Assembly: GCA_036253495.1 (NCBI GenBank)
Contig: GCA_036253495.1_4125.1
Direction: 5' to 3' (one strand)
Source: a phage
Length of the DNA stretch: 64,000 nucleotides
Shown here: piece after piece, positions 50,361 through 62,827 of the stretch
How positions within the stretch are numbered: position 1 is the stretch's first letter
Layout of the letters: each line of letters starts with the position of its first letter
The notes under the pieces: model-generated
The model's database searches: none
What the model saw: the letters and a program-made list of their open reading frames with translations, nothing else
Told to the model about the DNA's origin: nothing
Made by a program: the position numbers and the translations under genes

Positions 50361-50990
50361 TTAAACACATATAGCTAGGGGAAGCTCCGTAGTGCAAGCA
50401 TTATACAGGCTTTAACATATGTTGCATATGTTAAAATTCAGCCTGGACAAATGCGATCACTAGGATTCTCCCCAGGCTAAACCCCGTAATCATAAGTAAT
50501 CATATATAAACATTTAAGTAATCATTTATAATCATTGTAGTGAACAGTATTGAGTACTAGAGTGCAGGAATGATTCAGAATGATTCAGTACTGATATCCC
50601 ACTAAGTAGGCAAATGAAGTCGCCCAAAATTTACATAATTTTACAGTACTGAACAATTGCAAAACAAATCATTTCCAATCAAAAGTAATCACGGAATGAC
50701 CAGTACTGAAAACTCCCAATCACCTATTCAAAAAAGTTCAATTTACCCTTTGTCAAAAATCCCGAATACCCATTGGGGAAAATTCCGAATACCCCTTGAG
50801 GCTCCAGCAAAAAGTTGGTTAGTACTCCATCGTAAATCTGGATCGTAAAAATTTTGGAGTACCTATGAAATAAAAGTTGGATCTTCGAAAGTTGAAATTT
50901 ACATTGGGACATATAGGATTAGTGGGATATAATGAGTTTTGAAGAGATACAGAGTATACGATTTCAGTACTGAATAATGGAAGAAATCTA

Positions 50991-51018
50991 TTGACATTAT
51001 GATTCAGTACTGTATAAT
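50991..51018 (+). promoter_or_regulatory. orphan sigma70-like promoter in the ORF-free region
   Basis: TTGACA, 16 bp spacer, extended -10 TGTATAAT; no ORF follows; T-run near 51131-51141. Confidence 0.45.
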
Positions 51019-51150
51019 GTTCTACATAGAGTGATGAATTGCCGCAAACAATTCAGAGCCTTAGCCCTCCTGTCGTGAGACAGTACAGAAGAGATTGAAT
51101 CCTCCTATGCAGTGGTTCATCTTTGACAACCTCTTTTTTCGTAATATAAA

Positions 51151-51218
51151 CAGTACTGTTATTAACAGAATGGTAGCAGTACTGTTATTAACAGAATGGT
51201 AGCAGTACTGATATTAAT
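51151..51218. repeat. 26-bp tandem direct repeat, about 2.5 copies
   Basis: CAGTACTGTTATTAACAGAATGGTAG twice, then a partial third copy. Confidence 0.8.
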
Positions 51219-51454
51219 CTAATATAATGTTACCATGCAATGTGGTGAATTTCCCTTAACAGTATTCAGTACTACATGATAGTCTTCATCCTCCTAGGGT
51301 AACATAGTGAGGGCTATGATGGCAGTACTGAATACTCCCTTCTTAAAGATAGATCTATGGTATAGTACTGACGGATTTTGGGCGTAGTAACCCTGGGTGG
51401 ATTTTGGACGTAGAGATGCCTAGCCCTCCAGAAGTCTGGAAGTAAAGATGGCTA

Positions 51455-51570
51455 TCCCTCTAGACGGCTGGATGGCTGGATGGCTAGATTTCTAGATGGC
51501 TGTACTGCTAGACGTTTGGACGGCTAAACGGCTAGATGGTTAAACGTCTGGATGTATAGACGGTTAAATC
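51455..51570. repeat. iteron-like array of short degenerate direct repeats
   Basis: GGCTGGAT / GGCTAGAT / GACGGCTAAAC / AGACGGTTAAA units repeated about ten times, followed by an AT-rich T-run. Confidence 0.7.
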
Positions 51571-51731
51571 AAAATTTTTATTTTGTTTTTTCCAATAGTT
51601 CCCCTACCGCGTGGGGATGGTTTCCCCGCAGTATCTGGAGTTAGATTTTTCTGAATCTGGAAACATTATCCCAGTTTTAGCGGGGTATGTCAACCGCCTG
51701 GATGAATATTTTTAAAAAATAATCTAGTACT

Positions 51732-51806
51732 GAATTTTGGGCGTAACTATGCACCCGGTGGGCTAGAGTCTTTCTCGACTTGATGAAATAATTATAGCAG
51801 TACTGA
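51732..51806 (+). repeat. conserved noncoding element family A, copy 1
   Basis: ATTTTGGGCGTA..GCACCCGGTGGGCTAGAG..TGATG.AATAATTATAGCAGTACTG. Confidence 0.6.
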
Positions 51807-51906
51807 ATTATAAAAGCAATAGCCTAAGTGTAAAAAGTTTTAATTAATTTGCTTGCCATCCTGGGGCGTACTATGGTACTATGATTCAGTACTGAGAAAG
51901 TACTTT

Positions 51907-51933
51907 GACCCGCTAGGGTGCGGGAGTGTATCC
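51907..51933 (+). repeat. conserved noncoding element family B, copy 1
   Basis: CCCGCTAGGGTGCGGGAGTGTATCC. Confidence 0.5.
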
Positions 51934-51946
51934 TTTTTAAATTTAC

Positions 51947-52015
51947 TGAATTTTGGGCGTAGTTCCGCACCCCCTGGGGTATCCGCTTTCTCGCGTCTAT
52001 GTAGTAATTATACGC
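51947..52015 (+). repeat. conserved noncoding element family A, copy 2
   Basis: ATTTTGGGCGTAGTTCCGCACCCCCTGGGGTATCC..TCTATGTAGTAATTATACGC. Confidence 0.6.
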
Positions 52016-52264
52016 TTTTTTAGTACTGAGTCAATAGCTAAAAACAAAATAATTGAAAATAATTTAACGCGTTTAAACGGCCCGTAAAGCCCTGGATTGT
52101 TGGGAGTGGTGCAAATGTATAGCTTAGGTGTATTAATGCGTTAGAATGCGTCTGAGGCCGTTTTAAGGGTATAGTACTGAATAATTGTACTCACTGGATT
52201 GATTCAGTACTGAATGATAGTACTCCTATATAGAAAGAAAACTATTTTAAAAGTATTTGCAGAA

Positions 52265-52327
52265 AGTACTTGCATACTATGTTTAAGGGCGTATAATGTT
52301 TTACATCGAGACGGGGGAAACGCTCCT
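52265..52327 (+). promoter_or_regulatory. promoter with 5' hairpin
   Basis: AGTACTTGCAT -35, TATAAT, then GACGGGGGAAACGCTCC. Confidence 0.6.
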
Positions 52328-52353
52328 AACTCACTTTAATAGGAATTAAAACG

Positions 52354-52716
52354 ATGGCGACTCAAATCACTAAAATCATTGCTAACCTGGTTAACTTTCG
52401 CGAAGAGATGAAAGATCTTCCGGCTGAGACTGTAAAGATTCATATTTCAGCTTATCGGGAATTGATTGCAATGTTGCCGCTTAAGCGTGAACAATACGCC
52501 GCTACTGTGATGCTTGATGCGATGATCCACAAGATGATTGCCAGTGATTTAACGATGGCTTATCAGTACATGGGCGAACTATTTGCGGTGTATAGTAAAC
52601 CAGTGCCTGGGATGGAAAGTACAGAAGTATTGCACGGCTTAAACTTAAAACAAGATGCATGGGATAATATGCCTCGTTTCCTGGTATGGGCTGACAGTGG
52701 CAAGATTTACGAATAA
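52354..52716 (+). CDS. hypothetical protein
   Basis: 120 aa ORF. Confidence 0.6.
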   Translation: MATQITKIIANLVNFREEMKDLPAETVKIHISAYRELIAMLPLKREQYAATVMLDAMIHKMIASDLTMAYQYMGELFAVYSKPVPGMESTEVLHGLNLKQDAWDNMPRFLVWADSGKIYE

Positions 52717-52726
52717 GTTTTAAAAA

Positions 52727-52788
52727 GTACTTGCAAAGTAAGTTTAAAAGCGTATAATGTTTTACATCAGGTGGGGAATAGTTCCCCA
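52727..52788 (+). promoter_or_regulatory. promoter with 5' palindromic hairpin
   Basis: AGTACTTGCAA, TATAAT, GTGGGGAATAGTTCCCCAC. Confidence 0.65.
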
Positions 52789-52810
52789 CTATATAAGAGG
52801 ATTTTTAATT

Positions 52811-53050
52811 ATGGCTACTACTAAAACTTTCAACGGTCACAAAAACAAAACTCATTGGAATGTAAGCCTTTGGATTAATAACGATGAGTCATTGTATCGT
52901 CTGGCGAAAGAATTTATCGACGCTAATACTAATCGTAATGATGCGGCCCGTCATATGATGCTATTTTTAGAACAAATTGGACAAGATAAAACTCCAGACG
53001 GTTTCAAGTATAGCACTACGGCGATCCGTGCTGCAATGGTTGGAATGTAA
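52811..53050 (+). CDS. hypothetical small protein
   Basis: ATG 52811 after AGAGGA; track ORF from 52757. Confidence 0.6.
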   Translation: MATTKTFNGHKNKTHWNVSLWINNDESLYRLAKEFIDANTNRNDAARHMMLFLEQIGQDKTPDGFKYSTTAIRAAMVGM

Positions 53051-53132
53051 GAGAATAGATTTAAAGTACTATTGCACGGTGATAGTACTTTATAATAGAT
53101 TTCTTTTATACAACAACGATAGGGGTAACAGC

Positions 53133-53399
53133 ATGAATATTATATACTTTGCAACGCGTGAACAAGCTCGGCAAGCGGCAAAGGTTGACGGTGCAACGTT
53201 TAAAGATATGGGCGTACAATCTGAACGTGGTAAACGTTGGGCCGTAGTAAAGCAAAGTACAGCCCGATCAATTCAGTACTGGCTATCGGCTTTAAAGAGT
53301 CCTGATAGTGTATCGCGTCGAGTGGTAGAAATAAAGCACGACCGCAAGGGCAACCGTGTTACTGTGTACAGTACTAAAAAGATTGCAGTACTTGAATAA
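53133..53399 (+). CDS. hypothetical small protein
   Basis: ATG 53133; track ORF from 52977. Confidence 0.55.
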   Translation: MNIIYFATREQARQAAKVDGATFKDMGVQSERGKRWAVVKQSTARSIQYWLSALKSPDSVSRRVVEIKHDRKGNRVTVYSTKKIAVLE

Positions 53400-53401
53400 A
53401 A

Positions 53402-53463
53402 GTACTTGCAAAGTAATTAGATTAACGTATAATACTTTCTATCAGGTGGGGAATAGTTCCCCA
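53402..53463 (+). promoter_or_regulatory. promoter with 5' palindromic hairpin
   Basis: AGTACTTGCAA, TATAAT, GTGGGGAATAGTTCCCCAC. Confidence 0.65.
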
Positions 53464-53486
53464 CTACAAATAAGAGGATTTTTAAA

Positions 53487-53717
53487 ATGGCTATTATGTA
53501 TATGACCGAAGTTAAAACCGTAAAAGATACTACCACTAATAAAACTACTTACTTACAGCGGGTATGCGGTGTATGGCAACGTATTAGTAAAGCAAAGTAC
53601 TTTAAATTAACATCATATGCTAATCGTTCGGATTCATTCAGTACTGAAATAAAAGGTAATAAATTACACCAATACGGCACTTATTATTATTATAGCCTGG
53701 ACGCGATTGCAGTCTAA
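53487..53717 (+). CDS. hypothetical small protein
   Basis: 76 aa, AGAGGA RBS. Confidence 0.55.
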   Translation: MAIMYMTEVKTVKDTTTNKTTYLQRVCGVWQRISKAKYFKLTSYANRSDSFSTEIKGNKLHQYGTYYYYSLDAIAV

Positions 53718-53799
53718 GCAGTTTACAAATCTTTACAATTGCCGGTATTGACTTATTTTGTCAGTACTGGCATAATGTATCTATTGAAACGAACAATTT

Positions 53800-53824
53800 G
53801 GCCCACGGGGTGCGGGAGTGTATC
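53800..53824 (+). repeat. conserved noncoding element family B, copy 2
   Basis: GGCCCACGGGGTGCGGGAGTGTATC. Confidence 0.5.
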
Positions 53825-53855
53825 TATAGAAAAAGTAGTTTAGTACAGTTACAAT

Positions 53856-53905
53856 TGTGCACCCTATGGGTTAGCTGTTGTCATGGGGTATATTATACCA
53901 GTACT
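53856..53905 (+). repeat. conserved noncoding element family A-like, copy 3
   Basis: GTGCACCCTATGGGTTAGCTG..ATTATACCAGTACT. Confidence 0.45.
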
Positions 53906-53964
53906 TGATAATGCTGTCAATACTTTTTTTTTACTATTCAGTACTGAAAACTATTTTTTAAAAA

Positions 53965-54037
53965 GTACTTGCATACTATGTTTAAAGGCGTATAATGTTT
54001 TACATCAGGACGGGGAACGAAATAAGTAACTCCCCGT
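53965..54037 (+). promoter_or_regulatory. promoter with long 5' hairpin / leader element
   Basis: AGTACTTGCAT, TATAAT, then ACGGGGAACGAAATAAGTAACTCCCCGT; leader resembles 57001-57050. Confidence 0.55.
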
Positions 54038-54085
54038 TAAGTAGCCCAGGAGTAAGGCACACGAAAAACTCCCCTGATAAAATAG

Positions 54086-54113
54086 TTTGACAAATGTTTT
54101 TAAAAGCGTATAA
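54086..54113 (+). promoter_or_regulatory. sigma70-like promoter
   Basis: TTGACA, 16 bp spacer, TATAAT. Confidence 0.55.
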
Positions 54114-54146
54114 TACTTACATCAACTACTGAATGAGAGTTACAAA

Positions 54147-54821
54147 ATGAAAACTATCACTACTACTACTTTCGTTATGGATTTTTCTGAATTGAATGAG
54201 GGTGGCAAAGCGAAAACTATCACTACTACTACTTATGTTATGGCTTTTTCTGAATTGACCGCAGAACAACAAACGTCAGCTATCGAACTGGTTCGGGATC
54301 GTGAGCGTTCATGCGGGGATGATTTCTTTTCTGAGTCAGTGATCGAATACTATAAAGAAACATTATTGCCGGAATATGGCATTAATGACGCAGATTTACG
54401 ATTCAGTGGTTTTTGGTCGCAGGGTGACGGTGCATCAATCAGTACTGATCACGTTGACGGTGTGAAGTTTTTACGCAAGATTAAAGCATTAACTAAGTAT
54501 CGTTCTATCCGTCACCTGCTGAATGAAGATGATTTGGCAATGAGTGTAAAGCGTTCTCACTCCCACTACTCGCATGAAAACACTGTAAGCGGGTACATTG
54601 AATCGGCTTACACTGATTTAACCGCAAAACAAGAAACGTTAGTTAATGAGCTTGAGGAACTACTCACTGAAACTATTCGTGAATTATCTCGCAAGTTGTA
54701 CCGTGATTTAGAGAATGCATATGAGGATCAATTCACTACTGAGAACATTGTAGCACTGATTGAGGGTAACGAATATCAATTCAATGTTATTGATGGCGTA
54801 GTAGAATCAATCGAATATTAA
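54147..54821 (+). CDS. hypothetical protein with N-terminal internal duplication
   Basis: 224 aa; KTITTTTFVMDFSEL repeated as KTITTTTYVMAFSEL. Confidence 0.6.
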   Translation: MKTITTTTFVMDFSELNEGGKAKTITTTTYVMAFSELTAEQQTSAIELVRDRERSCGDDFFSESVIEYYKETLLPEYGINDADLRFSGFWSQGDGASISTDHVDGVKFLRKIKALTKYRSIRHLLNEDDLAMSVKRSHSHYSHENTVSGYIESAYTDLTAKQETLVNELEELLTETIRELSRKLYRDLENAYEDQFTTENIVALIEGNEYQFNVIDGVVESIEY

Positions 54822-54838
54822 TTCAGTACTGAATCAAT

Positions 54839-54857
54839 GGCGGGAGTGGTTCCCGCC
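54839..54857 (+). promoter_or_regulatory. 5' palindromic hairpin (no obvious own promoter)
   Basis: GGCGGGAGTGGTTCCCGCC just upstream of the RBS of 54878. Confidence 0.5.
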
Positions 54858-54877
54858 TATAACCAGGAGTAAGCATC

Positions 54878-55111
54878 ATGATCGAACAAATTCAAACGAC
54901 TACTAGCCGGAGCGGAACGAAAGTACATTCCATCGCTGATACTGATAAAGGTGTACCCTATTGTGCTGTACACGTAAACACTGACGGTGACTATTGGTTA
55001 ACTGTATACGGGCGTTACTCGTTTGCTTTTAGTGCACATAGTAAGATCCTGGAAGTAGTGAAGCCAACGGGTAAAAATATTACCGCTGAAATGTTTTATA
55101 AAAAGCACTAA
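54878..55111 (+). CDS. hypothetical small protein; paralog of 56247..56483
   Basis: Shared GVPYCAVHVNTDG.YW.TVYG ... PTGKNITAEMFYKK. Confidence 0.65.
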   Translation: MIEQIQTTTSRSGTKVHSIADTDKGVPYCAVHVNTDGDYWLTVYGRYSFAFSAHSKILEVVKPTGKNITAEMFYKKH

Positions 55112-55114
55112 AAA

Positions 55115-55176
55115 GTACTTGCAAAGTAATTAGATTAACGTATAATACTTTATATCGAGAGCGGGAATAGTTCCCG
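55115..55176 (+). promoter_or_regulatory. promoter with 5' palindromic hairpin
   Basis: AGTACTTGCAA, TATAAT, GCGGGAATAGTTCCCGC. Confidence 0.65.
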
Positions 55177-55196
55177 CCTATACTGAGGATTATCTA

Positions 55197-55478
55197 ATGA
55201 GCAAAGTAATTAACTATACAGTACTAAGCAAGTCATTGTCTATCAGTGAGTGCACCGATGGTTATTGGCTTTATGATGAAACGCGTGGCATGAATTTAGC
55301 TATGCAGGAGAAAACTACTGATGCGGCATATCTTAAAGCACTGGAATACTACCAGAAGCGTTTAAAGGAAGTAGAAAACGATTATAATAACCTGAAAGCG
55401 AAAGTAGATAATTTCGTTGGTCAATTCGTTGACGATGACGAGGGGCACTACTGCGACCGTTGCGGATCTTACAGTTAA
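55197..55478 (+). CDS. hypothetical small protein
   Basis: 93 aa; C-terminal CDRCGSYS. Confidence 0.6.
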   Translation: MSKVINYTVLSKSLSISECTDGYWLYDETRGMNLAMQEKTTDAAYLKALEYYQKRLKEVENDYNNLKAKVDNFVGQFVDDDEGHYCDRCGSYS

Positions 55479-55495
55479 GTACTAAGGATTATATA

Positions 55496-55699
55496 ATGAG
55501 TGATTTAATTGAACGTATCAAAGAGCTTGAAGAAAAAGAATTGCAGCTAATCGGCTTACAGAATAAAATCTATCATGATTTGGGGAGTTTTATCAATGCC
55601 TGGGATAGTGGCGATCCTGATGCGTTACCTGCTAACCGCCAGGCGATGATCAATGATGTGCGTCGTGTCTTTGAGTATGTTTTTAAGCAATTAAATTAA
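55496..55699 (+). CDS. hypothetical small protein
   Basis: ATG 55496 after TAAGGA; track ORF from 55460. Confidence 0.55.
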   Translation: MSDLIERIKELEEKELQLIGLQNKIYHDLGSFINAWDSGDPDALPANRQAMINDVRRVFEYVFKQLN

Positions 55700-55702
55700 A
55701 AA

Positions 55703-55765
55703 GTACTTGCAATTAGTTTTCAGTACTGTATAATAGTTTACATCAAGGGGAGAAATGGTTCTCCC
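55703..55765 (+). promoter_or_regulatory. promoter with 5' palindromic hairpin
   Basis: AGTACTTGCAA, CAGTACTGTATAAT, GGGGAGAAATGGTTCTCCC. Confidence 0.65.
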
Positions 55766-55784
55766 TGGTAATGAGGAAAATACA

Positions 55785-56006
55785 ATGGCTAACATTACTA
55801 CCCTTTCCCAACTTGAAGCACTGGTTAAATCTATGCGGGAACATGCCGACAATATCGGCGTAAAAGATCCAGCCGTTTGCTTCTGCGACGATGTAAATGA
55901 TGATACACTGGTAATAGCAGAAGTCCAGGACGTTTCTAACTATTCATCGCGTTACACTGGCGGTGTAGCAAATAAAGGTGACTTCTGTTTATACCTTACT
56001 AAGTAA
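55785..56006 (+). CDS. hypothetical small protein
   Basis: ATG 55785 after GAGGAA; track ORF from 55755. Confidence 0.55.
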   Translation: MANITTLSQLEALVKSMREHADNIGVKDPAVCFCDDVNDDTLVIAEVQDVSNYSSRYTGGVANKGDFCLYLTK

Positions 56007-56066
56007 TACAGAGGGGATCGATTGATCCCCTTTATTTTGCAGTACTGAATCATTTAATAGACGGAT

Positions 56067-56127
56067 CTATGCACCCGGTGGGTTAGAGACTGTATCGTCT
56101 TGATGTAGTAATTATGCCAGTACTGGA
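56067..56127 (+). repeat. conserved noncoding element family A, copy 4
   Basis: CTATGCACCCGGTGGGTTAGAG..TCTTGATGTAGTAATTATGCCAGTACTGG. Confidence 0.6.
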
Positions 56128-56169
56128 TGCAGTTGTCAAGAACTATTTTTCAAATACTTTTTATTAAAA

Positions 56170-56225
56170 TACTTGCTAATAGTTTTTAAACGCGTATAAT
56201 GTTTTGCATAGGGGAGCGGTTCCCC
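56170..56225 (+). promoter_or_regulatory. promoter with 5' palindromic hairpin
   Basis: TACTTGCTA, TATAAT, GGGGAGCGGTTCCCC. Confidence 0.6.
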
Positions 56226-56246
56226 TGGTAACTAAGGAATAAGAAA

Positions 56247-56483
56247 ATGCTTGAACAAATCAAAACAACGTCTGCGAATGTAACGGGAACGGTATCACAC
56301 TTTATTGGTGATGAATCGCGGGGCGTACCCTATTGTGCTGTACATGTAAACACTGATGGCAACTACTGGTTTACGGTTTACGGATCTTATTCATTTGGTC
56401 GACCTGGACATCAAAAAATCCTGGATAAAGTACAGCCAACGGGTAAAAATATCACTGCTGAAATGTTTTATAAAAAATCATAA
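56247..56483 (+). CDS. hypothetical small protein; paralog of 54878..55111
   Basis: 78 aa; same conserved core. Confidence 0.65.
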   Translation: MLEQIKTTSANVTGTVSHFIGDESRGVPYCAVHVNTDGNYWFTVYGSYSFGRPGHQKILDKVQPTGKNITAEMFYKKS

Positions 56484-56484
56484 A

Positions 56485-56546
56485 GTACTTGCAATTAGTT
56501 TTTAGTACTGTATAATATTTTACATAGCAAGGGGGAACGGTTCCCC
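56485..56546 (+). promoter_or_regulatory. promoter with 5' palindromic hairpin
   Basis: AGTACTTGCAA, TAGTACTGTATAAT, GGGGGAACGGTTCCCC. Confidence 0.65.
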
Positions 56547-56566
56547 TGGTAACTAAGGATAATCAA

Positions 56567-56866
56567 ATGAAAATTGCAATCATCGCCCTGGCTTTATCTG
56601 TTTCCTCTTTCGCTGTTAATGCGTCATTAGATGTACCTGGTGATAAATTCATTCAGTGCACAGTAGCAATGACAGATGAAAGTACTGGCGAGATTGTTTT
56701 AAAGGATCTGGAATTACAGCCAGAAGCATTTAAAAACGGGCCGTTCCATGAAGAAGACGAAAAAGGTAGCACAACAATTTATTATGATGCAATGAAAAAA
56801 CGTGGTTCTGTCACTGTTATGGATACTGAGAAAGTAACGCATACAGGCGTTATTAACTGCCTATAA
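56567..56866 (+). CDS. putative secreted small protein
   Basis: Signal peptide MKIAIIALALSVSSFAVNAS. Confidence 0.6.
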   Translation: MKIAIIALALSVSSFAVNASLDVPGDKFIQCTVAMTDESTGEIVLKDLELQPEAFKNGPFHEEDEKGSTTIYYDAMKKRGSVTVMDTEKVTHTGVINCL

Positions 56867-56886
56867 TACATCAGTACTGAATCACT

Positions 56887-56913
56887 AGCCCACTATAAGC
56901 AGTGGGCTTTTTT
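56887..56913 (+). terminator. Rho-independent terminator
   Basis: AGCCCACTATAAGCAGTGGGCT + T-run. Confidence 0.75.
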
Positions 56914-56961
56914 GTAGTATCGTAGTACTGGAATACTTTGAAAATAGTTTTAAAAAAGTAG

Positions 56962-57050
56962 TTGACATTACCGCAAAAAGGCGTAGAATGTATTACATCA
57001 AGACGGGGAACACTAAGTAGACCGCCAGTAAGTCGAACGAAAAACTGGAC
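56962..57050 (+). promoter_or_regulatory. promoter plus conserved long leader element
   Basis: TTGACA, TAGAAT; leader ACGGGGAAC..AAGTAG..AGTAAG..CGAAAAACT resembles 54010-54075; about 110 nt 5' UTR. Confidence 0.5.
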
Positions 57051-57112
57051 ACGTCGAGAAAACTTTGATACACTAACTAACGTAAACTAAACTTTAATTG
57101 AGGAATTACATA

Positions 57113-57595
57113 ATGGCTAACGTAAAATCATTCATCAAAGCACTGGTAGCAAATGAAACTAACGTAGCGGCAGAAATCCTGGCCGAACTGGATAGCGATA
57201 CCATGAAAGCAGTACGCAACAATTTTAACATTGCGTACAGCGAAGCGAAAGAACTGCAAGCTAATAAAGCGGCAGCACTTGAAGCTGAGAAGGCAGCACG
57301 CGAAGCTGAATTGCAGAAAACGATTGAAGATATTAACGCCGCCGTCGCTGGGCTTGATCTGGAAGTAGTTACCGAAATGGCACGTAAAGCCCTGGCAGCG
57401 AAATACGGGGAAGACAAGCCAGAAGTAAAAGCTAAAAAATGGATTCAAGAACGTGTGACGGTTGTACTGGATAATGGCGAGGAATACACTGTACCAGTAC
57501 GCGGTAACTGCATTGCGGTAGTACTGGATGCTATCAAAGAAAGCGGATTGACTCGCGAGGAATGGATCGAATCTCATCGCAAAGTTGAAGCATAA
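57113..57595 (+). CDS. hypothetical A/E/K-rich protein
   Basis: ATG 57113 after GAGGAA; track ORF begins at a TTG at 57098. Confidence 0.6.
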   Translation: MANVKSFIKALVANETNVAAEILAELDSDTMKAVRNNFNIAYSEAKELQANKAAALEAEKAAREAELQKTIEDINAAVAGLDLEVVTEMARKALAAKYGEDKPEVKAKKWIQERVTVVLDNGEEYTVPVRGNCIAVVLDAIKESGLTREEWIESHRKVEA

Positions 57596-57616
57596 CAATT
57601 AAAGTACTGAATCACT

Positions 57617-57644
57617 AGCCCACCTTAAACAGTGGGCTTTTTTT
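57617..57644 (+). terminator. Rho-independent terminator
   Basis: AGCCCACCTTAAACAGTGGGCT + T-run. Confidence 0.75.
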
Positions 57645-57660
57645 GTGTCTATAGTATCCC

Positions 57661-57770
57661 AGTCCACCAGCACCGCCTAGAATCGATTCTAACGCATTAA
57701 ACTGATTATCTGATGCATCGCCCTAGCTGGTGGCGTTAAGGTCGTTAGAATGCGATTGAGAGCGTTTAAA
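57661..57770. repeat. long imperfect inverted repeat containing the CGTTAGAATGCG element
   Basis: CCACCAGCACCGCCTAGAATCGATTCTAACGC ... GCCCTAGCTGGTGGCGTTAAGGTCGTTAGAATGCGATTGAGAGCGTTTAAA. Confidence 0.5.
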
Positions 57771-57794
57771 GTATTTTGCAAAAAGTAATAAAAA

Positions 57795-57826
57795 GTACTT
57801 GCACGATAAAGAGATTAGCGTATAAT
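57795..57826 (+). promoter_or_regulatory. sigma70-like promoter
   Basis: AGTACTTGCAC, TATAAT. Confidence 0.55.
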
Positions 57827-57871
57827 TAATTACATCAAGGCGAGACACCTTAACTAACTGAGGATATAAAG

Positions 57872-58024
57872 ATGAATACTTATGAACTGGATTGTTTCAC
57901 TTTACAAGTAATGTCAGTATGCAGTAAAAAAGATTGGTCATCAAAGGAATTTAAAGCAGTTATCGCGTGTGCAAAACACGGCAAGACTATCAATGAAACG
58001 GCATCAATCATTGATAAACTTTAA
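57872..58024 (+). CDS. hypothetical small protein
   Basis: 50 aa hand-translated; GAGGAT RBS. Confidence 0.4.
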   Translation: MNTYELDCFTLQVMSVCSKKDWSSKEFKAVIACAKHGKTINETASIIDKL

Positions 58025-58032
58025 AAAATAGT

Positions 58033-58061
58033 TTGACAATAGTTTTAAGTACTGCGATAAT
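58033..58061 (+). promoter_or_regulatory. sigma70-like promoter
   Basis: TTGACA, 17 bp spacer, GATAAT. Confidence 0.5.
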
Positions 58062-58094
58062 ACATACATCAACTACTGAATAGGAATCAAAACA

Positions 58095-58322
58095 ATGGCT
58101 ATCGTAATCACTCGCGTAACTGGTACTACTGGCAATTCTTCTACTGTTGCTGTAATTACTAATAAGAAAGGTGCGGAATTGCATTTTGCAATGGATACCT
58201 GGGCAGTGAATGAGTTCGGTCAGTGGGCTAGTGTAGAATACATTGAATCCTATCAAGTGCCATCGATTAGCTTAACTGATTTAGGTGTAGAACGTATCCT
58301 TTGCCTGGATGAATTAAATTAA
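58095..58322 (+). CDS. hypothetical small protein
   Basis: 75 aa ORF. Confidence 0.55.
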   Translation: MAIVITRVTGTTGNSSTVAVITNKKGAELHFAMDTWAVNEFGQWASVEYIESYQVPSISLTDLGVERILCLDELN

Positions 58323-58326
58323 AAAA

Positions 58327-58390
58327 GTACTTGCAAAGTAAATCAAATAAAGTATAATACATTACATCAAGGGGAGAAATGGTTCTCCCC
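58327..58390 (+). promoter_or_regulatory. promoter with 5' palindromic hairpin
   Basis: AGTACTTGCAA, TATAAT, GGGGAGAAATGGTTCTCCCC. Confidence 0.65.
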
Positions 58391-58408
58391 ACTAAGAGGA
58401 AACGAAAA

Positions 58409-58552
58409 ATGAAAACTTGTCAATGTGGTAAAAAATCTATTACTGGTTTAAAGCGGGGCGTTGCTCTTTGTCAGTATCACTATAATGCTCAAGTATGGGG
58501 TAAAGAGTGGGCCGACCGGGTTGAAGCATCAAAGAAAGCAAAAAGTAAGTAA
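58409..58552 (+). CDS. small cysteine-containing protein (possible zinc ribbon)
   Basis: 47 aa hand-translated; CQCG ... LCQYH. Confidence 0.45.
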   Translation: MKTCQCGKKSITGLKRGVALCQYHYNAQVWGKEWADRVEASKKAKSK

Positions 58553-58571
58553 AAATATTATCACAGTACTA

Positions 58572-58600
58572 TTGACATAGATTGATAGTACTGGCATAAT
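58572..58600 (+). promoter_or_regulatory. sigma70-like promoter within a ~95-bp duplicated intergenic block
   Basis: TTGACA, 17 bp spacer, CATAAT; block recurs at 58860-58950 and 62740-62830. Confidence 0.6.
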
Positions 58601-58643
58601 AGATTTTATCAAGACAACACATATTAATTTAAGGAATACTAAA

Positions 58644-58856
58644 ATGGCTATCATTATTAAAAACAAAGTTAACAAGACTATCGTTAAACTGGCAGAAGTG
58701 AAAGAAGGTTATAAAGTATCTTGGGAGGGTTTTTATAGGATGTTCACAGATATAGACGATGCAATCAAGTACTACACTGATACGGTTGCTGACTTTGTTC
58801 GTTCTGATGTAGTAATGGCAGTTGCACAACATAAAGCATCGAAAGAAAGTAAGTAA
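58644..58856 (+). CDS. hypothetical small protein
   Basis: 70 aa; MAII start shared with 62828 gene. Confidence 0.55.
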   Translation: MAIIIKNKVNKTIVKLAEVKEGYKVSWEGFYRMFTDIDDAIKYYTDTVADFVRSDVVMAVAQHKASKESK

Positions 58857-58875
58857 AATTATTATCACAGTACTA

Positions 58876-58904
58876 TTGACATAGTTTGATAGTACTGGCA
58901 TAAT
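58876..58904 (+). promoter_or_regulatory. sigma70-like promoter (duplicated block copy 2)
   Basis: TTGACA, CATAAT; leader identical to copy 1. Confidence 0.6.
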
Positions 58905-58947
58905 AGATTTTATCAAGACAACACATATTAATTTAAGGAATACTAAA

Positions 58948-59271
58948 ATGGCTAAAACTATCATTAACACCGTATCCCTGGCTGCAATCCGTGCAATCAA
59001 TGTTGACGGTAAACGTTGGACTGATTCATATGGCAATACTTATCATTCTTGTCATGTAAGCGTTGAACTGGATAACGGTGTGAATGATCTGGCGGTTGAA
59101 TCATTTACTTATGGCTATGAAGATGCATATCAACAAACGGCGTTATCTCTCTTAAAGGAATCAGTAGATGGGCTTGATACTGTTGAAACCTCCCTTAATC
59201 GTTTGTGCAATGATTTGTCTATCCCGTTGCATTGTACTGTACAGAATGTTAAACGCAAAAAAGATCTTTAA
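58948..59271 (+). CDS. hypothetical protein
   Basis: 107 aa ORF. Confidence 0.55.
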   Translation: MAKTIINTVSLAAIRAINVDGKRWTDSYGNTYHSCHVSVELDNGVNDLAVESFTYGYEDAYQQTALSLLKESVDGLDTVETSLNRLCNDLSIPLHCTVQNVKRKKDL

Positions 59272-59351
59272 TTAGCTTTACTTTATGCAGATACTTTGAT
59301 ATAGTGTCTGCATAGGGGAAAGAAATTAAATTAACTTAAGAGGATAGTATA

Positions 59352-59621
59352 ATGAAAAATATCAGTACTTTAATCGATGCAGGTACGCATGTTCGTCGGT
59401 CTATGGTTGCAACCAGTACTACAAAACAAGTAGCGAGCGGTTATCTTGTATTTGTGCACGATGGTAAACTCCTGGAACGTTCAATCAATTTTGATGTTAA
59501 AAACAATTGCCGTTTTATTATCTTTAAGCGTGAACAATATAAAATTGATTTACCAGCGAAGCCCATAAGCGGGGCGTACAACGTGCAATCATTGTTTGAG
59601 CGTCAACCATACACCTATTAA
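59352..59621 (+). CDS. hypothetical small protein
   Basis: 89 aa, AGAGGA RBS. Confidence 0.55.
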   Translation: MKNISTLIDAGTHVRRSMVATSTTKQVASGYLVFVHDGKLLERSINFDVKNNCRFIIFKREQYKIDLPAKPISGAYNVQSLFERQPYTY

Positions 59622-59672
59622 TCAAAACATCGTTAGCGGTTGATTTAGGCCGCTTATATTGAGGATTATACC

Positions 59673-59942
59673 ATGAACGTTAATCAAGTACTGAATGAAG
59701 TTGAAAGCATCATTAAACCAATGAAACGAATTGATGCAATTCCTACACCGGAAGAATGCCGCCTTTATGAGCGTTACAGTGTAGAACAAGCCCAGGCGAT
59801 GGCCCGTATCCGTCCGGTTGCTAGTACTGAGAACGCGGATCAGGACGTTACAGGGGATTATATCATTAATCCAGTACTAGGGAAGATGCCGCCAATCACC
59901 GAAGAACAAAAAGACTATTTGAGCCAGTACTTAAAAGGTTAA
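59673..59942 (+). CDS. hypothetical small protein
   Basis: 89 aa, GAGGAT RBS. Confidence 0.55.
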   Translation: MNVNQVLNEVESIIKPMKRIDAIPTPEECRLYERYSVEQAQAMARIRPVASTENADQDVTGDYIINPVLGKMPPITEEQKDYLSQYLKG

Positions 59943-59947
59943 TTAAT

Positions 59948-60157
59948 ATGCTTACTGTACAGGATAAGATCGACATCTTAAAGGTTAATATGTATGTGAT
60001 TGATGCAGATCCTGAAAAAGTATTTGCATACGATGATTCTAATCGTAGTCCTTTCTATTGTAGTCATGTAGTTGGATACGTGCCGTTGGCGTATGTTATC
60101 GAAAGAGTGGTTGATGCAGCATACAATCATTTTTTAGAAAATAATACTTGCAATTAG
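59948..60157 (+). CDS. hypothetical small protein
   Basis: 69 aa ORF. Confidence 0.45.
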   Translation: MLTVQDKIDILKVNMYVIDADPEKVFAYDDSNRSPFYCSHVVGYVPLAYVIERVVDAAYNHFLENNTCN

Positions 60158-60206
60158 TTTTCAGTACTGTATAATGATTTGCATCGAGAGCGGGAATGGT
60201 TCCCGC
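60144..60206 (+). promoter_or_regulatory. promoter with 5' palindromic hairpin
   Basis: TACTTGCAA, CAGTACTGTATAAT, GCGGGAATGGTTCCCGC. Confidence 0.65.
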
Positions 60207-60229
60207 CTAACTCAAAGAGAGAAAATATA

Positions 60230-60472
60230 ATGGAAACTATTTTAATCAAAGACACTGCAACTACTGTTACTTATGATAATGATTGTATTATCCCTGGCAC
60301 TGATTACGGTGAACGTGTACCCGTTCAAGTCGAGATTGATACTACATACATTGACCAGGCTGAAAAGTGTATCACTATTGTTATTGGTGAATATCGTTTT
60401 CTACCAGAAGAGATCCAAAAATGGCAGTATATGATTGACCGTGCGAAATTAGTCGCACAAAGTTTAAAATAA
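60230..60472 (+). CDS. hypothetical small protein
   Basis: ATG 60230; track ORF from 60179. Confidence 0.55.
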   Translation: METILIKDTATTVTYDNDCIIPGTDYGERVPVQVEIDTTYIDQAEKCITIVIGEYRFLPEEIQKWQYMIDRAKLVAQSLK

Positions 60473-60535
60473 TACTTGCAATTAGTTTTCAGTACTGTAT
60501 AATGTTTTACATGAAGGGGAGAAATAGTACTCCCC
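60472..60535 (+). promoter_or_regulatory. promoter with 5' palindromic hairpin
   Basis: TACTTGCAA, CAGTACTGTATAAT, GGGGAGAAATAGTACTCCCC. Confidence 0.65.
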
Positions 60536-60554
60536 ACTAATTAAGGAATATGAA

Positions 60555-60701
60555 ATGAAAGCATCAAAAAAGAGTAATACTAAGAAAGCATGTTCACCTT
60601 TCGCTGGGGTATTCCCTTTACGTTTCGTTGATGAAGTGGTTTCCTACCCGCCGGGCCTTACTCCTGAGATGGTAGAAAGTTTGCGTAAATCTAAAAAATA
60701 G
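60555..60701 (+). CDS. hypothetical small basic protein
   Basis: 48 aa hand-translated; AAGGAA RBS. Confidence 0.45.
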   Translation: MKASKKSNTKKACSPFAGVFPLRFVDEVVSYPPGLTPEMVESLRKSKK

Positions 60702-60764
60702 TACTTGCAATTAGTTTTCAGTACTGTATAATGTTTTACATAGAGGGGGGAAATGGTTCTCCCC
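60701..60764 (+). promoter_or_regulatory. promoter with 5' palindromic hairpin
   Basis: AGTACTTGCAA, CAGTACTGTATAAT, GGGGGGAAATGGTTCTCCCC. Confidence 0.65.
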
Positions 60765-60782
60765 GATACTAGGAGAATCAAA

Positions 60783-60935
60783 ATGAAACAATATAATGCT
60801 CGGTTTGATGTTACTATCGGCAACGGCAAAGGTCAATTTTCTTTCAGTACTCGTCGCAGTTATACAGAAAACTTCCTGCGTAATTGTGCATTGACCGCCG
60901 CACAAATTAAACATTACTTCCAGGCTAAAAAATGA
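60783..60935 (+). CDS. hypothetical small protein
   Basis: ATG 60783 after AGGAGA; track ORF from 60753. Confidence 0.5.
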   Translation: MKQYNARFDVTIGNGKGQFSFSTRRSYTENFLRNCALTAAQIKHYFQAKK

Positions 60936-61021
60936 AATCATTGGCTTATTACAGTTCGGCGGTGATCGGTGCATTGATCGCGGCATTGTTAGTAACCTAT
61001 CTATTCTTTGTGGTGATTTAA
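60932..61021 (+). CDS. small hydrophobic peptide
   Basis: 29 aa hand-translated, single TM-like segment, ATGA overlap. Confidence 0.3.
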   Translation: MKSLAYYSSAVIGALIAALLVTYLFFVVI

Positions 61022-61159
61022 ATGAATCCTAACGGTTTAATTTATAGTACTCCTAAAACGAAAGCAGATAAAGCGAAAGCACGTAAAGCGAAAGTAAAGG
61101 AGTACATCAAGCAAGGCATGACGCGAAAAGCAGCAGTACTAAAAGCTAAAAATAAATGA
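61022..61159 (+). CDS. small K/A-rich basic peptide
   Basis: 45 aa hand-translated, TAAATG coupling. Confidence 0.4.
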   Translation: MNPNGLIYSTPKTKADKAKARKAKVKEYIKQGMTRKAAVLKAKNK

Positions 61160-61166
61160 AAAAAGT

Positions 61167-61198
61167 GGTTGACTTCGGTCAGCCATTTTGCTATTATA
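61167..61198 (+). terminator. terminator hairpin overlapping promoter -35
   Basis: GGTTGAC-TTCG-GTCAGCC, short T-run, TATTAT. Confidence 0.6.
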
Positions 61199-61221
61199 TA
61201 TTCATTGAGAGATAGCTCACT

Positions 61222-61246
61222 AGCCCACCGGGTGCGGAAGTGTAAA
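61222..61246 (+). repeat. conserved noncoding element family B, copy 3
   Basis: AGCCCACCGGGTGCGGAAGTGTAAA. Confidence 0.45.
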
Positions 61247-61278
61247 TAAAATATATCAATCTAATAAGGAGTACTACA

Positions 61279-61461
61279 ATGTTTAAACCAATCGAACTAG
61301 CGGCATCACATATCATCGGTAAACCTGCCGTTATCATACGCCAGGAAGACGTAAACCTATGGATCATCTATGTAGACATGAAAGAGATTGAGCGTCACGA
61401 TGATTTCAAATCAGCGTCAATTGCGTATGATATGGCGTTATGTGAGTATCAAAGAGATTAA
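61279..61461 (+). CDS. hypothetical small protein
   Basis: 60 aa, AAGGAG RBS. Confidence 0.55.
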   Translation: MFKPIELAASHIIGKPAVIIRQEDVNLWIIYVDMKEIERHDDFKSASIAYDMALCEYQRD

Positions 61462-61477
61462 AAGTATTTTGCAAAAA

Positions 61478-61540
61478 GTACTTGCATTGTACTTAGAATC
61501 AAGTATAATGTTTTACATAGCAAGGGGAAACGGTTTCCCC
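61478..61540 (+). promoter_or_regulatory. promoter with 5' palindromic hairpin
   Basis: AGTACTTGCAT, TATAAT, GGGGAAACGGTTTCCCC. Confidence 0.65.
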
Positions 61541-61561
61541 TGGTAACTAAGGAAATGAATT

Positions 61562-62029
61562 ATGAATAGCATCGAATTCGTCGCAGCAGTACAAGAAAAC
61601 TTCCTGAAAGTATTCCCTAACGGTTTCTTTATCGCCCGACCTTTACCGCTGGGTGGCGACGTGGGGATCACTATGTCACTGACTCGCGAGCTTGCCGACT
61701 GCCCCCACAATATCCGCGATAACGACCGCATGATGATGACCTTTGCGATCCACGGTATGAAGTTCGGGGATAGCGACGAATACACAGACAAGCTGATCAT
61801 GGAACCGTACCGCAGCGTTATCAGTACTATTCCACGTAAACAGTACTACGCGATGGGACATGACAAAATCCCTACCCGTAAGACTACAAACACGCCTGAG
61901 AAGCTGTTAGCGACTCTTAACAAGTATATTCGGGCCGCAGGTAAACAGGTGTTAGATCTTAAAGCATTAAACGAGATTTACCAACAGGAAAACATCAAAG
62001 AGCAGTACTTAGAAATTAACGTAAAATAG
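61562..62029 (+). CDS. hypothetical protein
   Basis: 155 aa ORF. Confidence 0.6.
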   Translation: MNSIEFVAAVQENFLKVFPNGFFIARPLPLGGDVGITMSLTRELADCPHNIRDNDRMMMTFAIHGMKFGDSDEYTDKLIMEPYRSVISTIPRKQYYAMGHDKIPTRKTTNTPEKLLATLNKYIRAAGKQVLDLKALNEIYQQENIKEQYLEINVK

Positions 62030-62093
62030 TACTAGACAACACAACGGGGCTATTATATAATAGTCCCATCTTAAGCAAACAAGGAACTACAAA

Positions 62094-62432
62094 ATGATCT
62101 CAATCGCTCAATCTAACTTTGAAAACGAAATCATCGCCCAGGCACTGCGTTTAAATGATGGTCGGGCCGAAATTAATTACGGTTTCAATTCAGGCGGTTG
62201 TGAAAACTATCAGTACTTTGTAACGGCTGATGGCGGTGTCCTGGGAATCAATACAGTTATTGTAAACATTCAGAAAATTAATTTCAATGATCCAGAAGAT
62301 AGCCAGTTTTACATCACGGGCGTAGACGTGAACTATGAGGATGACTCACTAACTGATGATTGCACTGGTGAGAAGTTAGAAAGTGCATACGGTGAAGATG
62401 ATTATCAGTCCGGTCCAGAAGATTTCGAATAA
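62094..62432 (+). CDS. hypothetical acidic protein
   Basis: 112 aa ORF. Confidence 0.6.
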   Translation: MISIAQSNFENEIIAQALRLNDGRAEINYGFNSGGCENYQYFVTADGGVLGINTVIVNIQKINFNDPEDSQFYITGVDVNYEDDSLTDDCTGEKLESAYGEDDYQSGPEDFE

Positions 62433-62448
62433 TATAAAAAATAGTTTG

Positions 62449-62511
62449 ACAATAGATTATAGTACTGTATAATAAGTTACATCAAGGGGAGAATAGTTCT
62501 CCCCACAAACA
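62449..62511 (+). promoter_or_regulatory. promoter with 5' palindromic hairpin
   Basis: TTGACA, TAGTACTGTATAAT, GGGGAGAATAGTTCTCCCC. Confidence 0.65.
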
Positions 62512-62524
62512 GAGAGAAAACAAA

Positions 62525-62737
62525 ATGGCTAATATCCGCACTGTACTGAAAAATGCAAAACAAGTTTTATTTTCTGATCATGAAAATTTCAACAAGGATA
62601 TCACAGGCGTTCGGAATATCAAAGATGTAAAAAATGTTATGGGTATCTATTGCAATATGAAACGTGTTGGCACGTTCGGCGATAAAGTACTATACCAGGC
62701 AGGGGATTACAATTTTACACTGACTATCATTAACTAA
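62525..62737 (+). CDS. hypothetical small protein
   Basis: 70 aa ORF. Confidence 0.55.
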   Translation: MANIRTVLKNAKQVLFSDHENFNKDITGVRNIKDVKNVMGIYCNMKRVGTFGDKVLYQAGDYNFTLTIIN

Positions 62738-62756
62738 AAATATTATCACAGTACTA

Positions 62757-62785
62757 TTGACAACGTTTGATAGTACTGACATAAT
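62757..62785 (+). promoter_or_regulatory. sigma70-like promoter (duplicated block copy 3)
   Basis: TTGACA, 17 bp spacer, CATAAT. Confidence 0.6.
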
Positions 62786-62827
62786 AACTTTTATCAAGAC
62801 AACGCATATTAACTTAAGGAATTAAAA

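Follow-up and report, generated by a model that had tools for sequence, protein, structure and literature searches.

A 64,000-nucleotide stretch of phage DNA (the window; NCBI GenBank assembly GCA_036253495.1, contig GCA_036253495.1_4125.1) contains seven copies of a conserved noncoding element, here called A1 to A4 on the minus strand and B1 to B3 on the plus strand. These copies belong to one promoter-coupled family that is restricted to the direct terminal repeat (DTR) of the phage, is conserved across genera, and shows covariation of the RNA type. The family probably represents a single set of promoter-coupled, structured small-RNA modules in the early region (the DTR) of a Rak2-like jumbo phage.

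One family in two orientations

A preliminary description of the window listed seven conserved intergenic stretches, and all seven are present where it placed them, with essentially the consensus that it gave. Their recurrence is beyond chance. The core, CCCNNNGGGTGC (CCC-N3-GGGTGC), occurs six times, counting both strands of the window, compared with 0.05 expected, and none of 100 shuffled sequences reaches six occurrences. The form GGGTGCGGRAGTGTA has three exact occurrences, and the seventh copy, B1 (51909), has a loop of 4 rather than 3 nucleotides.

The preliminary description divided the stretches into two families and placed them outside sigma70 promoters, and both points have to be revised. 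Read on the minus strand, Family A consists of TATAAT or CATAAT, 21 to 28 nucleotides, and CCCNNNGGGTGC, and Family B shows this arrangement on the plus strand. When TGATGWAGTAATTATRC, which is the right arm of Family A, is reverse-complemented, it gives a -10 hexamer together with its start region; the arm is 96% complementary to the -10 regions of other promoters in the window. Because the same layout is found on opposite strands and each copy has a promoter, the stretches form one family in two orientations, of which the promoter is a part.

Each of the seven copies comprises a sigma70 promoter of the TTGACx-17-TATAAT type and, after about 7 nucleotides, a module of about 65 nucleotides. 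The -35 element (TTGACA, TTGACT or TTGCTT) is located 16 to 18 nucleotides upstream of the -10 hexamer, and the core is 21 to 29 nucleotides downstream of it. Promoters that match the consensus at 9 or more of 12 positions are found on the motif strand of 84 of 89 copies from this and other phages, as opposed to 3 of 89 mirrored controls and 6 of 89 random sites. All seven copies in the window reach this level.

Structure of the predicted RNA module

The predicted transcription start is within CAT(A/C) and is followed by a module of four parts. A first hairpin, HP1, has a stem of 3 to 5 base pairs and a purine-rich loop (GAGAAA, GCGAAA, AGAUAA or AGAACAA), and is followed by a CUAA or CUAG linker. 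The core hairpin, HP2a, has the form R-CCC-(3-4 nt)-GGG-U and is followed by a G and one further base, C or G. A variable stretch of six bases, the last of them U, separates this from a 3' box, S-Y-R-U-C-Y, which is represented by GUAUCU, CCGUCY or ACGCCC. The 3' box mostly precedes an A, and AGUACUG occurs some 10 to 20 nucleotides further downstream.

HP1 covaries strongly. Bases are paired in 91.5% of alignment cells, all four pairs vary, and each is represented by three to five pair types. The covariation score of 0.325 compares with 0.111 in shuffled alignments (0 of 500 reach it) and with at most 0.037 in slid controls. An alignment-free count agrees: a hairpin with at least 3 Watson-Crick pairs is in the expected place in 60 of 90 copies, versus 20.7 +/- 4.0 with shuffled leaders. 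The CCC/GGG stem of HP2a is 98.3% paired and includes three independent double changes (CUC/GAG, CCU/AGG and CGC/GCG), and RNAalifold independently gives both HP1 and HP2a. At paired columns, G.U outnumbers A.C by 34:1. This imbalance, which is meaningless for duplex DNA, implies that the constraint is strand-specific and acts on the RNA of the promoter strand.

These data bear on the roles that the preliminary description had proposed, of which only small RNA genes are favoured. The modules are at a fixed distance behind their own promoters, their covariation is strand-specific, and antisense copies have a terminator about 40 nucleotides further on. Promoters for a non-sigma70 polymerase or sigma factor are not supported: ordinary sigma70 promoters are present, and the predicted start lies upstream of the conserved core.

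The remaining role, a protein-binding site in DNA, is likewise disfavoured, whereas binding of a protein to the RNA form is likely. A DNA-level site would be an operator, roadblock or recombination site, CCC-N3/4-GGGTG, located just behind a subset of early promoters. The core is indeed near-invariant in sequence beyond its pairing potential, CCC...GGG is a dyad, and the element is confined to the terminal repeat. Also, Fur-box-like palindromes beside the convergent pairs of some relatives make DNA-binding regulation plausible there. However, the spacing of the half-sites varies (3 or 4 nucleotides), as does the distance to the -10 hexamer (21 to 29 nucleotides), and the compensatory changes in the three variant copies preserve complementarity rather than sequence. 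The flanking R.U pair is G.U in 27 cases and A.C in 1, which again has no meaning for duplex DNA, HP1 covariation is inexplicable on the duplex level, and orientation is always tied to the promoter strand. We therefore regard a DNA-level site as improbable.

The 3' box can also pair with GGGUGS, forming a hairpin, HP2b, that excludes HP2a because both use GGGU. The two are nearly iso-energetic (about -4 kcal/mol for HP2a and about -3 kcal/mol for HP2b), and in A1 and A2 HP2b is favoured (-7.5 kcal/mol). HP2b is 90.6% paired, compared with at most 65% in slid controls. However, shuffled alignments are 89.5% paired, 32 of 500 reach the observed value, and covariation does not exceed what column composition gives. 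Because the shuffles are nearly as well paired, HP2b is compatible with the data but unproven.

The existence of two such hairpins is central to the main rival explanation, namely that the element is a cis-acting attenuator or antiterminator switch. Such a leader, which could resemble put or nut sites, would have no function in trans, and the switch between HP2a and HP2b would set pausing, termination or read-through. Consistent with this idea, the element is always at the extreme start of an early-promoter transcript, the shared GGGU makes the hairpins alternatives, and the pairing of the 3' box with GGGUGS exceeds the slid controls. Moreover, the alternative hairpin and U-run of B1 are flagged as a terminator, sense copies precede genes, and the Muenster copy at +8962 has a terminator-like hairpin between element and gene. 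In contrast, most copies lack a U-run behind the alternative hairpin, which has no covariation beyond column composition, and none has a boxA-like sequence. Antisense copies, which end at a terminator 40 nucleotides on, have no gene that they could control, and every early gene already has its own promoter. A purely cis-acting leader is accordingly unlikely, although it is the most serious competitor of the small-RNA explanation.

Several points weigh against that explanation. Start sites and 3' ends of the units are predictions, and sense copies, which lack their own terminator, may never exist as separate small RNAs (sRNAs). Approximately one third of copies have no HP1 stem, and instead have an A-rich leader resembling GAAAACAA. 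Single-sequence folds are weak, with z-scores of +0.4 to -2.4, and the small hairpins contribute only about -4 kcal/mol. Variation in the CCC/GGG stem is so rare that support for it comes from the three variant copies, and alignments made with a covariance model are biased towards the modelled structure. Finally, a function of the hairpin as decoy or tag is pure conjecture.

Three further structures were considered and rejected. A pseudoknot of the 3' box with the loop of HP1 (AGAUA/UAUCU) pairs in just 58.9% of cells, and the pairing is restricted to the AGAUAA subclass. A stem that would join the 5' end to the 3' box and so close a three-way junction has a run of at least 5 pairs in 27 copies, versus 32 +/- 4 with shuffled leaders. 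A minigene of the lambda bar type (NUG-UAU-CUA-UAG) is not general either: NUG is at the candidate position in only 44 of 90 copies, the candidate open reading frames (ORFs) are anywhere between 1 and 36 codons long, and a start codon is missing from the CCGUCY and ACGCCC classes. In those 44 copies, the 3' box begins with NUG, continues with UAU-CUA and often reaches UAG (alignment columns 57-66; in the window, for example, 53817-53828). The resulting three-codon mini-ORF is five nucleotides behind GGGUG, which resembles a Shine-Dalgarno (SD) sequence, and is striking in the GUAUCU subclass but not family-wide.

Occurrence in the terminal repeats of related phages

The window derives from a jumbo coliphage of the Asteriusvirus type, and the region is about 90% identical to phages G17, A4, 121Q and PBECO4. 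In vB_Ec-M-J, homology starts 659 bp into the record, within an annotated DTR of 21,525 bp, and the records of several further relatives begin at this same point. A terminal repeat of about 21 kb has been verified by restriction digests in phage fEgEco12 (PMC13070987). The homology to the vB_Ec-M-J repeat and the shared record starts place the physical left end of the genome near window position 50,640. Thus, what the preliminary description termed the right module is the long (~21-kb) DTR, which is dense with small early genes.

The first covariance model, which was built from 10 copies, found 47 copies, and the second found 90 (89 distinct) in at least 5 lineages. The latter set spans Asteriusvirus, Alcyoneusvirus, Mimasvirus, the unclassified Munch and Kaldavass groups, and three metagenomic jumbo contigs. 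In the window, the model identifies exactly the seven known copies and none in positions 1-50,640. In the complete genome of EC22.5-2 (351,992 bp), all nine model matches are at 30.8-49.6 kb, which is the DTR, and a B1-type copy found by pattern search brings the number to 10. An exact-pattern scan of IMG/VR gave 52 loci, of which the covariance model accepted only those on Rak2-like jumbo contigs; the others match by chance. Pattern scans of four DTRs gave 11 copies in vB_Ec-M-J, 9 in Munch and 11 in Muenster, each behind a sigma70 promoter, whereas the fourth, XbC2, has a variant GGGTGG core that only a looser pattern caught.

The copies are kept across genera, so that the lack of conservation in related genomes that would have spoken against the preliminary description is not observed, and A2 is the most deeply conserved. 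In distant BLAST comparisons, A2 is 88-96% identical across genera that otherwise share almost no DNA similarity; over about 50 nucleotides, the identity is 92-96% in Salmonella phage Munch, Klebsiella phage fENko-Kae01 and Xanthomonas phage XbC2 and 92-94% in Erwinia phages. An A2-like element with about 70% identity is present in RaK2, K64-1 and Muenster. Wherever a record begins at the terminus, the A2 element is about 1.0-1.1 kb from the start of the DTR, and all genera examined retain a face-to-face pair of the A2/B1 type about 1 kb from the end of the genome. The first ORFs downstream of this terminal pair are not homologous among the four lineages compared. A BLAST search of A2 against 5,426 E. 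coli genomes gave no match, which argues against host mimicry by sequence.

The resemblance of the units to ordinary early cassettes raises the question of whether they are neutral leftovers, i.e., cassettes like the promoter-early stem-loops (PeSLs) of T4-type phages that were stripped of their ORFs and homogenized by recombination or gene conversion. The units are laid out like such cassettes, with an TACATCAAG start, a 5' hairpin and a CUAA linker, and the core in place of the ribosome binding site (RBS). B3 has a PeSL-type terminator/promoter, leaders have been exchanged between orthologous copies, and PeSLs are known as recombination substrates (PMC2839356). Against this, the core and A2 are kept across genera whose flanks have diverged beyond recognition, and about 10 copies per DTR are present in three of the four lineages with a fully sampled DTR. 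Conservation is also patterned (an invariant core, transitions only in the 3' box, and compensatory stems), whereas gene conversion would conserve uniformly. We judge neutral leftovers to be slightly less probable even than a DNA-level site.

The standard early gene module itself is repeated about 18 times in 52,250-64,000. It consists of a promoter, AAAAAGTACTTGCAA-N16-TATAAT, the start TACATCAAG, a 5' hairpin (GGGGAGAA-N-UUCUCCCC), the linker ACUAA, an RBS and ATG, and shares the skeleton of the A and B units, with the RBS in the place of the CCC/GGG core. Small early genes at 54878-55111 and 56247-56483 are paralogues, each with its own promoter cassette, and are 79% identical over 155 nucleotides (54950-55104 versus 56322-56476).

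The initial ~1.7 kb of the DTR (about 50,640-52,350) is noncoding in all relatives, holds A1, B1 and A2, and may be an origin or packaging region. It includes blocks that are conserved across genera, a 26-bp tandem repeat (2.6 copies) at 51151-51217, about 12 iteron-like 8-mers of the types GGCTGGAT, GGCTAGAT and ACGGCTAA at 51460-51554, and an AT-rich tract at 51570-51600.

Transcripts of the elements, especially those of A1 and A2 in this region, might supply replication-origin primers or R-loops, as at T4 oriE, oriF and oriG. A1, A2 and a further promoter (51693-51665) aim leftwards at the iteron-like 8-mers and the AT-rich tract, and a GC-rich start followed by AT-rich DNA resembles an origin that combines a promoter with a DNA-unwinding element. 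Also, these phages are distantly related to T4 (PMC5259590). However, about 10 dispersed copies in both orientations are too many for origins, folded hairpins, as indicated by HP1 covariation, argue against a persistent RNA-DNA hybrid, and internal antisense copies stop at terminators. Origin transcripts are the least probable of the alternatives, and we consider them very doubtful.

Two tandem degenerate copies of the 3' part, which have no promoters and were missed by the preliminary description, are located on the minus strand at 51375-51412, between A1 and the iteron array. They read ..ACCCAGGGUUACUACGCCCAAAAUCC and ..CUACGUCCAAAAUCC (ATTTTGGGCGTA at 51375 and ATTTTGGACGTA at 51401) and correspond to the 3' part of the A1/A2 type (ACGYCCAAAAUCC). 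The covariance models did not pick them up.

In Munch and Muenster, Fur-box-like palindromes with 2 or 3 mismatches to GATAATGATAATCATTATC lie between or adjoin the convergent pairs (L006:7434, 2343 and 776; L007:1306, 2422 and 787). Matches with at most 5 mismatches number 8 in Munch and 13 in Muenster, compared with about 1.5 expected. No Fur box was found in the window or in the E. coli phage.

Genomic contexts and individual units

The copies occur in three contexts. Solitary copies that oppose their flanking genes make up the first, and seven were examined (A4 and six in relatives). In all seven, the GC hairpin of the upstream gene's terminator begins 39-41 nucleotides after the core, from which discrete RNAs of about 100 nucleotides are predicted. 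Six of the seven passed the U-rich-tail threshold of the terminator scan, and A4 is short by one U. The second context is the convergent pair, represented in the window by B1/A2 and B2/A3 and by counterparts in every lineage examined, with predicted starts about 100-110 nucleotides apart. In the third, copies are codirectional with genes and are followed by a second promoter or, as with B3, directly by an RBS and an ORF.

A1 (51723..51819, minus strand) has a -35 element, TTGCTT, at 51819-51814 and a -10 element, TATAAT, at 51796-51791, and a second promoter in tandem at 51834-51807. Its module (51786-51723) comprises HP1 (AGUC-GAGAAA-GACU), CUAG, CCC-ACC-GGGUGC and the 3' box ACGCCC, followed by AAAAUUCAGUACU. 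It scores 65.1 bits with the first covariance model and 59.6 bits with the second, and its minimum-free-energy fold contains HP1 and a GGGUG/CGCCC pairing.

B1 (51853..51949, plus strand) has a weak promoter, TTGCCA-18-TACTAT (51853-51882). The module (51884-51949) has HP1 (AGUACU-GAGAA-AGUACU) and then CCC-GCUA-GGGUGC, and matches the covariance model weakly (20.3 bits, E=0.039). An alternative hairpin, AGGGUGCG-GGAG-UGUAUCCU (51915-51934), is followed by UUUUU and was found to be terminator-like in the terminator scan. Facing B1, with predicted start sites about 110 nucleotides apart, is A2 (51939..52034, minus strand), which has the promoter TTGACT-16-TATAAT (52034-52007). The A2 module (52002-51939) consists of HP1 (CGC-GAGAAA-GCG), CCCC-AGG-GGGUGC and the 3' box ACGCCC, and then AAAAUUCA.

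B2 (53748..53841, plus strand) has the promoter TTGACT-17-CATAAT (53748-53776) and a module (53779-53841) with CCC-ACG-GGGUGC, GGGAGU and GUAUCU, and then AUAG. Its orthologue in G17 and vB_Ec-M-J keeps the core and differs in HP1 (GGC-AGAUAA-GCC). B2 is convergent with A3 (53831..53920, minus strand), whose promoter, TTGACA-17-TATAAT (53920-53892), matches the consensus at 12 of 12 positions. The A3 module (53891-53831) comprises CCC-AUA-GGGUGC, ACAAUU and GUAACU, and has the A-rich leader CCCCAUGACAACAGCUAA rather than a clear HP1.

A4 (56003..56139, minus strand) is a predicted antisense-oriented sRNA gene of about 100 nucleotides. The promoter TTGACA-17-CATAAT (56139-56111) is followed by a module (56106-56043) with HP1 (AGAC-GAUACA-GUCU), CCC-ACC-GGGUGC and CCGUCU, and then by an AU-rich stretch that includes AGUACUG. 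The unit ends with the hairpin GGGGAUC-AAUC-GAUCCCC (56030-56013), which it has in common with the terminator of the upstream plus-strand gene. The 117-nucleotide fold has an energy of -28.5 kcal/mol (z = -2.35), and its centroid consists of HP1, the CCC/GGG hairpin and the terminator hairpin.

B3 (61169..61263, plus strand) has a -35 element, TTGACT, at 61169-61174 and a -10 element, TATTAT, at 61192-61197. These are part of a PeSL-type terminator/promoter composite in which the hairpin GGTTGACTTCGGTCAGCC is followed by a T-run (61166-61189). The module (61200-61263), with HP1 (UGAG-AGAUAG-CUCA) and then CCC-ACC-GGGUGC, is the 5' leader of a 60-codon ORF (ATG at 61279).

Possible function

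If the small-RNA explanation is correct, host sigma70 RNA polymerase would initiate about 7 nucleotides past the -10 hexamer immediately after infection. The first ~65 nucleotides would fold into HP1, with its variable stem and purine/ARN-rich loop, the invariant R-CCC-(3-4 nt)-GGG-U with G-S, and the 3' box (U-S-Y-R-U-C-Y), which may alternatively pair with GGGUGS. Copies opposing genes would meet a terminator hairpin about 40 nucleotides on and yield discrete sRNAs of about 100 nucleotides, whereas copies codirectional with genes would be 5' leaders of early mRNAs. The invariant GC hairpin might then serve as a recognition tag for a trans-acting RNA-binding protein of the phage or host. With about 10 copies per repeat, and so about 20 per virion genome, the family could supply immediate-early RNA in abundance, as a regulator or decoy in host take-over.

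A more ambitious version of this idea is tentative, and we would not expect it to hold in full. According to this version, at least 5 Rak2-like lineages, with the hosts Escherichia, Klebsiella, Salmonella, Pectobacterium/Erwinia and Xanthomonas, would share a multi-copy immediate-early RNA family, at about 20 copies per virion genome and all in terminal repeats. The bistable hairpin tag would act as a decoy in host take-over or anti-defence. Alternately, the conserved terminal pair could form a double-stranded RNA or a roadblock device that is tied to the function of the terminal repeat.

Rak2/121Q jumbo phages are used in phage therapy work, and more than 80% of their genes have no assigned function. 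Under the small-RNA explanation, apparently miscellaneous intergenic repeats in these phages become predicted RNA genes or leaders, about 10 in each terminal repeat, with a predicted start, structure and orientation for every one. Should these RNAs prove abundant and bind a factor of the host or the phage, they would join the small number of conserved take-over devices that are known at the RNA level in virulent phages, and annotation across the phage group would then be possible with a calibrated covariance model. Because the family is strictly confined to the DTR, it can serve as a sequence marker for genome ends in assemblies in which the repeat has collapsed, and the fixed position of A2/B1 about 1 kb from the physical end offers a second marker.

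Other repeats in the window

AGTACT is the most frequent hexamer in the window, with 250 copies compared with about 22 expected from base composition (11.5-fold); examples are at 51,009, 51,728, 54,826 and 56,041. Coding and noncoding DNA both contain it, to the left and to the right of the DTR boundary, and promoter spacers (CAGTACTGTATAAT) and the ends of genes are frequent locations. The sequence CAGTACTG has 58 occurrences.

The E. coli Chi sequence, GCTGGTGG, is present seven times, as opposed to 0.5 expected (0 of 100 shuffles), at 11220, 20930, 33215, 57726, 63272 and 63539 on the plus strand and at 57664 on the minus strand; 57664 and 57726 form an inverted pair inside an intergenic gap. 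This enrichment may protect the linear genome against RecBCD. The core of the RNA family is not itself a Chi mimic: on the plus strand it agrees with Chi in no more than 6 of 8 positions, and the triplet at its centre is variable.

Eight paralogous genes of about 370-470 codons each are arranged in tandem on the minus strand at 36,562-46,463, and each has a conserved upstream region (CCTCCTTTATTCATTATA...).

Comparison with known systems

Searches for established RNA classes gave no match at the gathering level of Rfam 15 in the 64-kb window, and two chance-level matches at E<5 elsewhere in 51300-56300; ARAGORN found no tRNA or tmRNA in the window. The genome papers searched for this phage group report only RpoD-like promoters (PMC5259590) or are silent on promoters and noncoding elements, and the RNA family is apparently undescribed in the literature searched.

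The family differs from simple intrinsic terminators, because B1 is the only copy flagged as such. The core hairpin has 4 bp, and purine-rich sequence follows it in the other copies.

A precedent for noncoding RNAs in a long DTR comes from the Pseudomonas jumbo phage PA5oct, in which RNA-seq identified ncRNA001 and ncRNA002, amounting to 2-5% of phage reads (Lood et al. 2020, PMC7318152). As with the present family, these highly expressed noncoding transcripts come from a long DTR, and PA5oct is a related jumbo phage. They differ in being 236 and 451 nucleotides long, defined by RNA-seq only, and single-copy. Homology between the two was considered and rejected: neither the covariance model nor the core motif has a match anywhere in the 39-kb DTR of PA5oct, a more distant relative.

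The lambda nut boxA/boxB and HK022 put sites are small hairpin RNAs located just behind early promoters on both strands. The loops of HP1 (GAGAAA, GCGAAA and GAAACA) are reminiscent of purine-rich boxB loops, and put RNAs have two long stems. In contrast, the stems of the present family are 3-5 bp long, there are about 10 copies rather than 2, and many copies have no downstream operon. A lambda nut-type site was rejected because boxA (CGCUCUUA or GCUCUUUAA) is absent from the seven units; the best match has 2-4 mismatches in 8-9 positions and is located in promoter DNA.

The antisense copies also bear a partial resemblance to Hfq-dependent class II sRNAs. They have their own promoter, a length of about 100 nucleotides, an ARN-rich segment (the HP1 loop or A-rich leader), an AU-rich linker, and a terminal GC hairpin with a U-rich tail. 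A promoter and terminal hairpin are found in the seven solitary antisense copies, along with ARN-rich loops, and the U-tails are weak, being short or interrupted (A4: UCUGUAUU). Unlike Hfq-dependent sRNAs, the family has no identified single-stranded seed, its conserved core is paired, and it has many copies that share an invariant tag.

Among known concepts, the PeSL of T4-type phages comes closest to the family (Arbiol et al. 2010, PMC2839356; Comeau et al. 2014, PMC4122927). In a PeSL, a stem-loop located upstream of the promoter or within it serves as terminator, and an RBS and an ORF complete the cassette (PMC2839356). As in PeSLs, the family has a strong sigma70-type early promoter in a repeated intergenic cassette. 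Both are concentrated in plastic regions that are rich in small ORFans and prone to exchange between copies, and B3 and many copies in relatives use a composite in which the terminator is part of the promoter. Ten copies of a terminator/promoter composite, GGGTTGACTTCGGTCAGCCC-TTTTTGC-TATAAT, occur in the window at 10993, 19423, 19780, 21148, 22437, 24070, 26936, 27665, 29298 and 61164; the -35 element is inside the hairpin and the T-run forms the spacer, in agreement with the published description of PeSLs. The ordinary early modules of the window and its GGTTGACTTCGGTCAGCC...TATAAT composites agree with it as well.

Among the seven copies in the window, however, B3 alone has an upstream hairpin, and B3 alone directly precedes an RBS and ATG; the other six have neither the hairpin nor the ORF with its SD sequence and start codon. 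Unlike PeSLs, the family has its conserved part downstream of the start, where a two-hairpin RNA with an invariant core is found in both orientations and is conserved across genera. The family is best filed as an RNA-bearing variant of promoter cassettes or, equivalently, as a putative phage sRNA/leader family.

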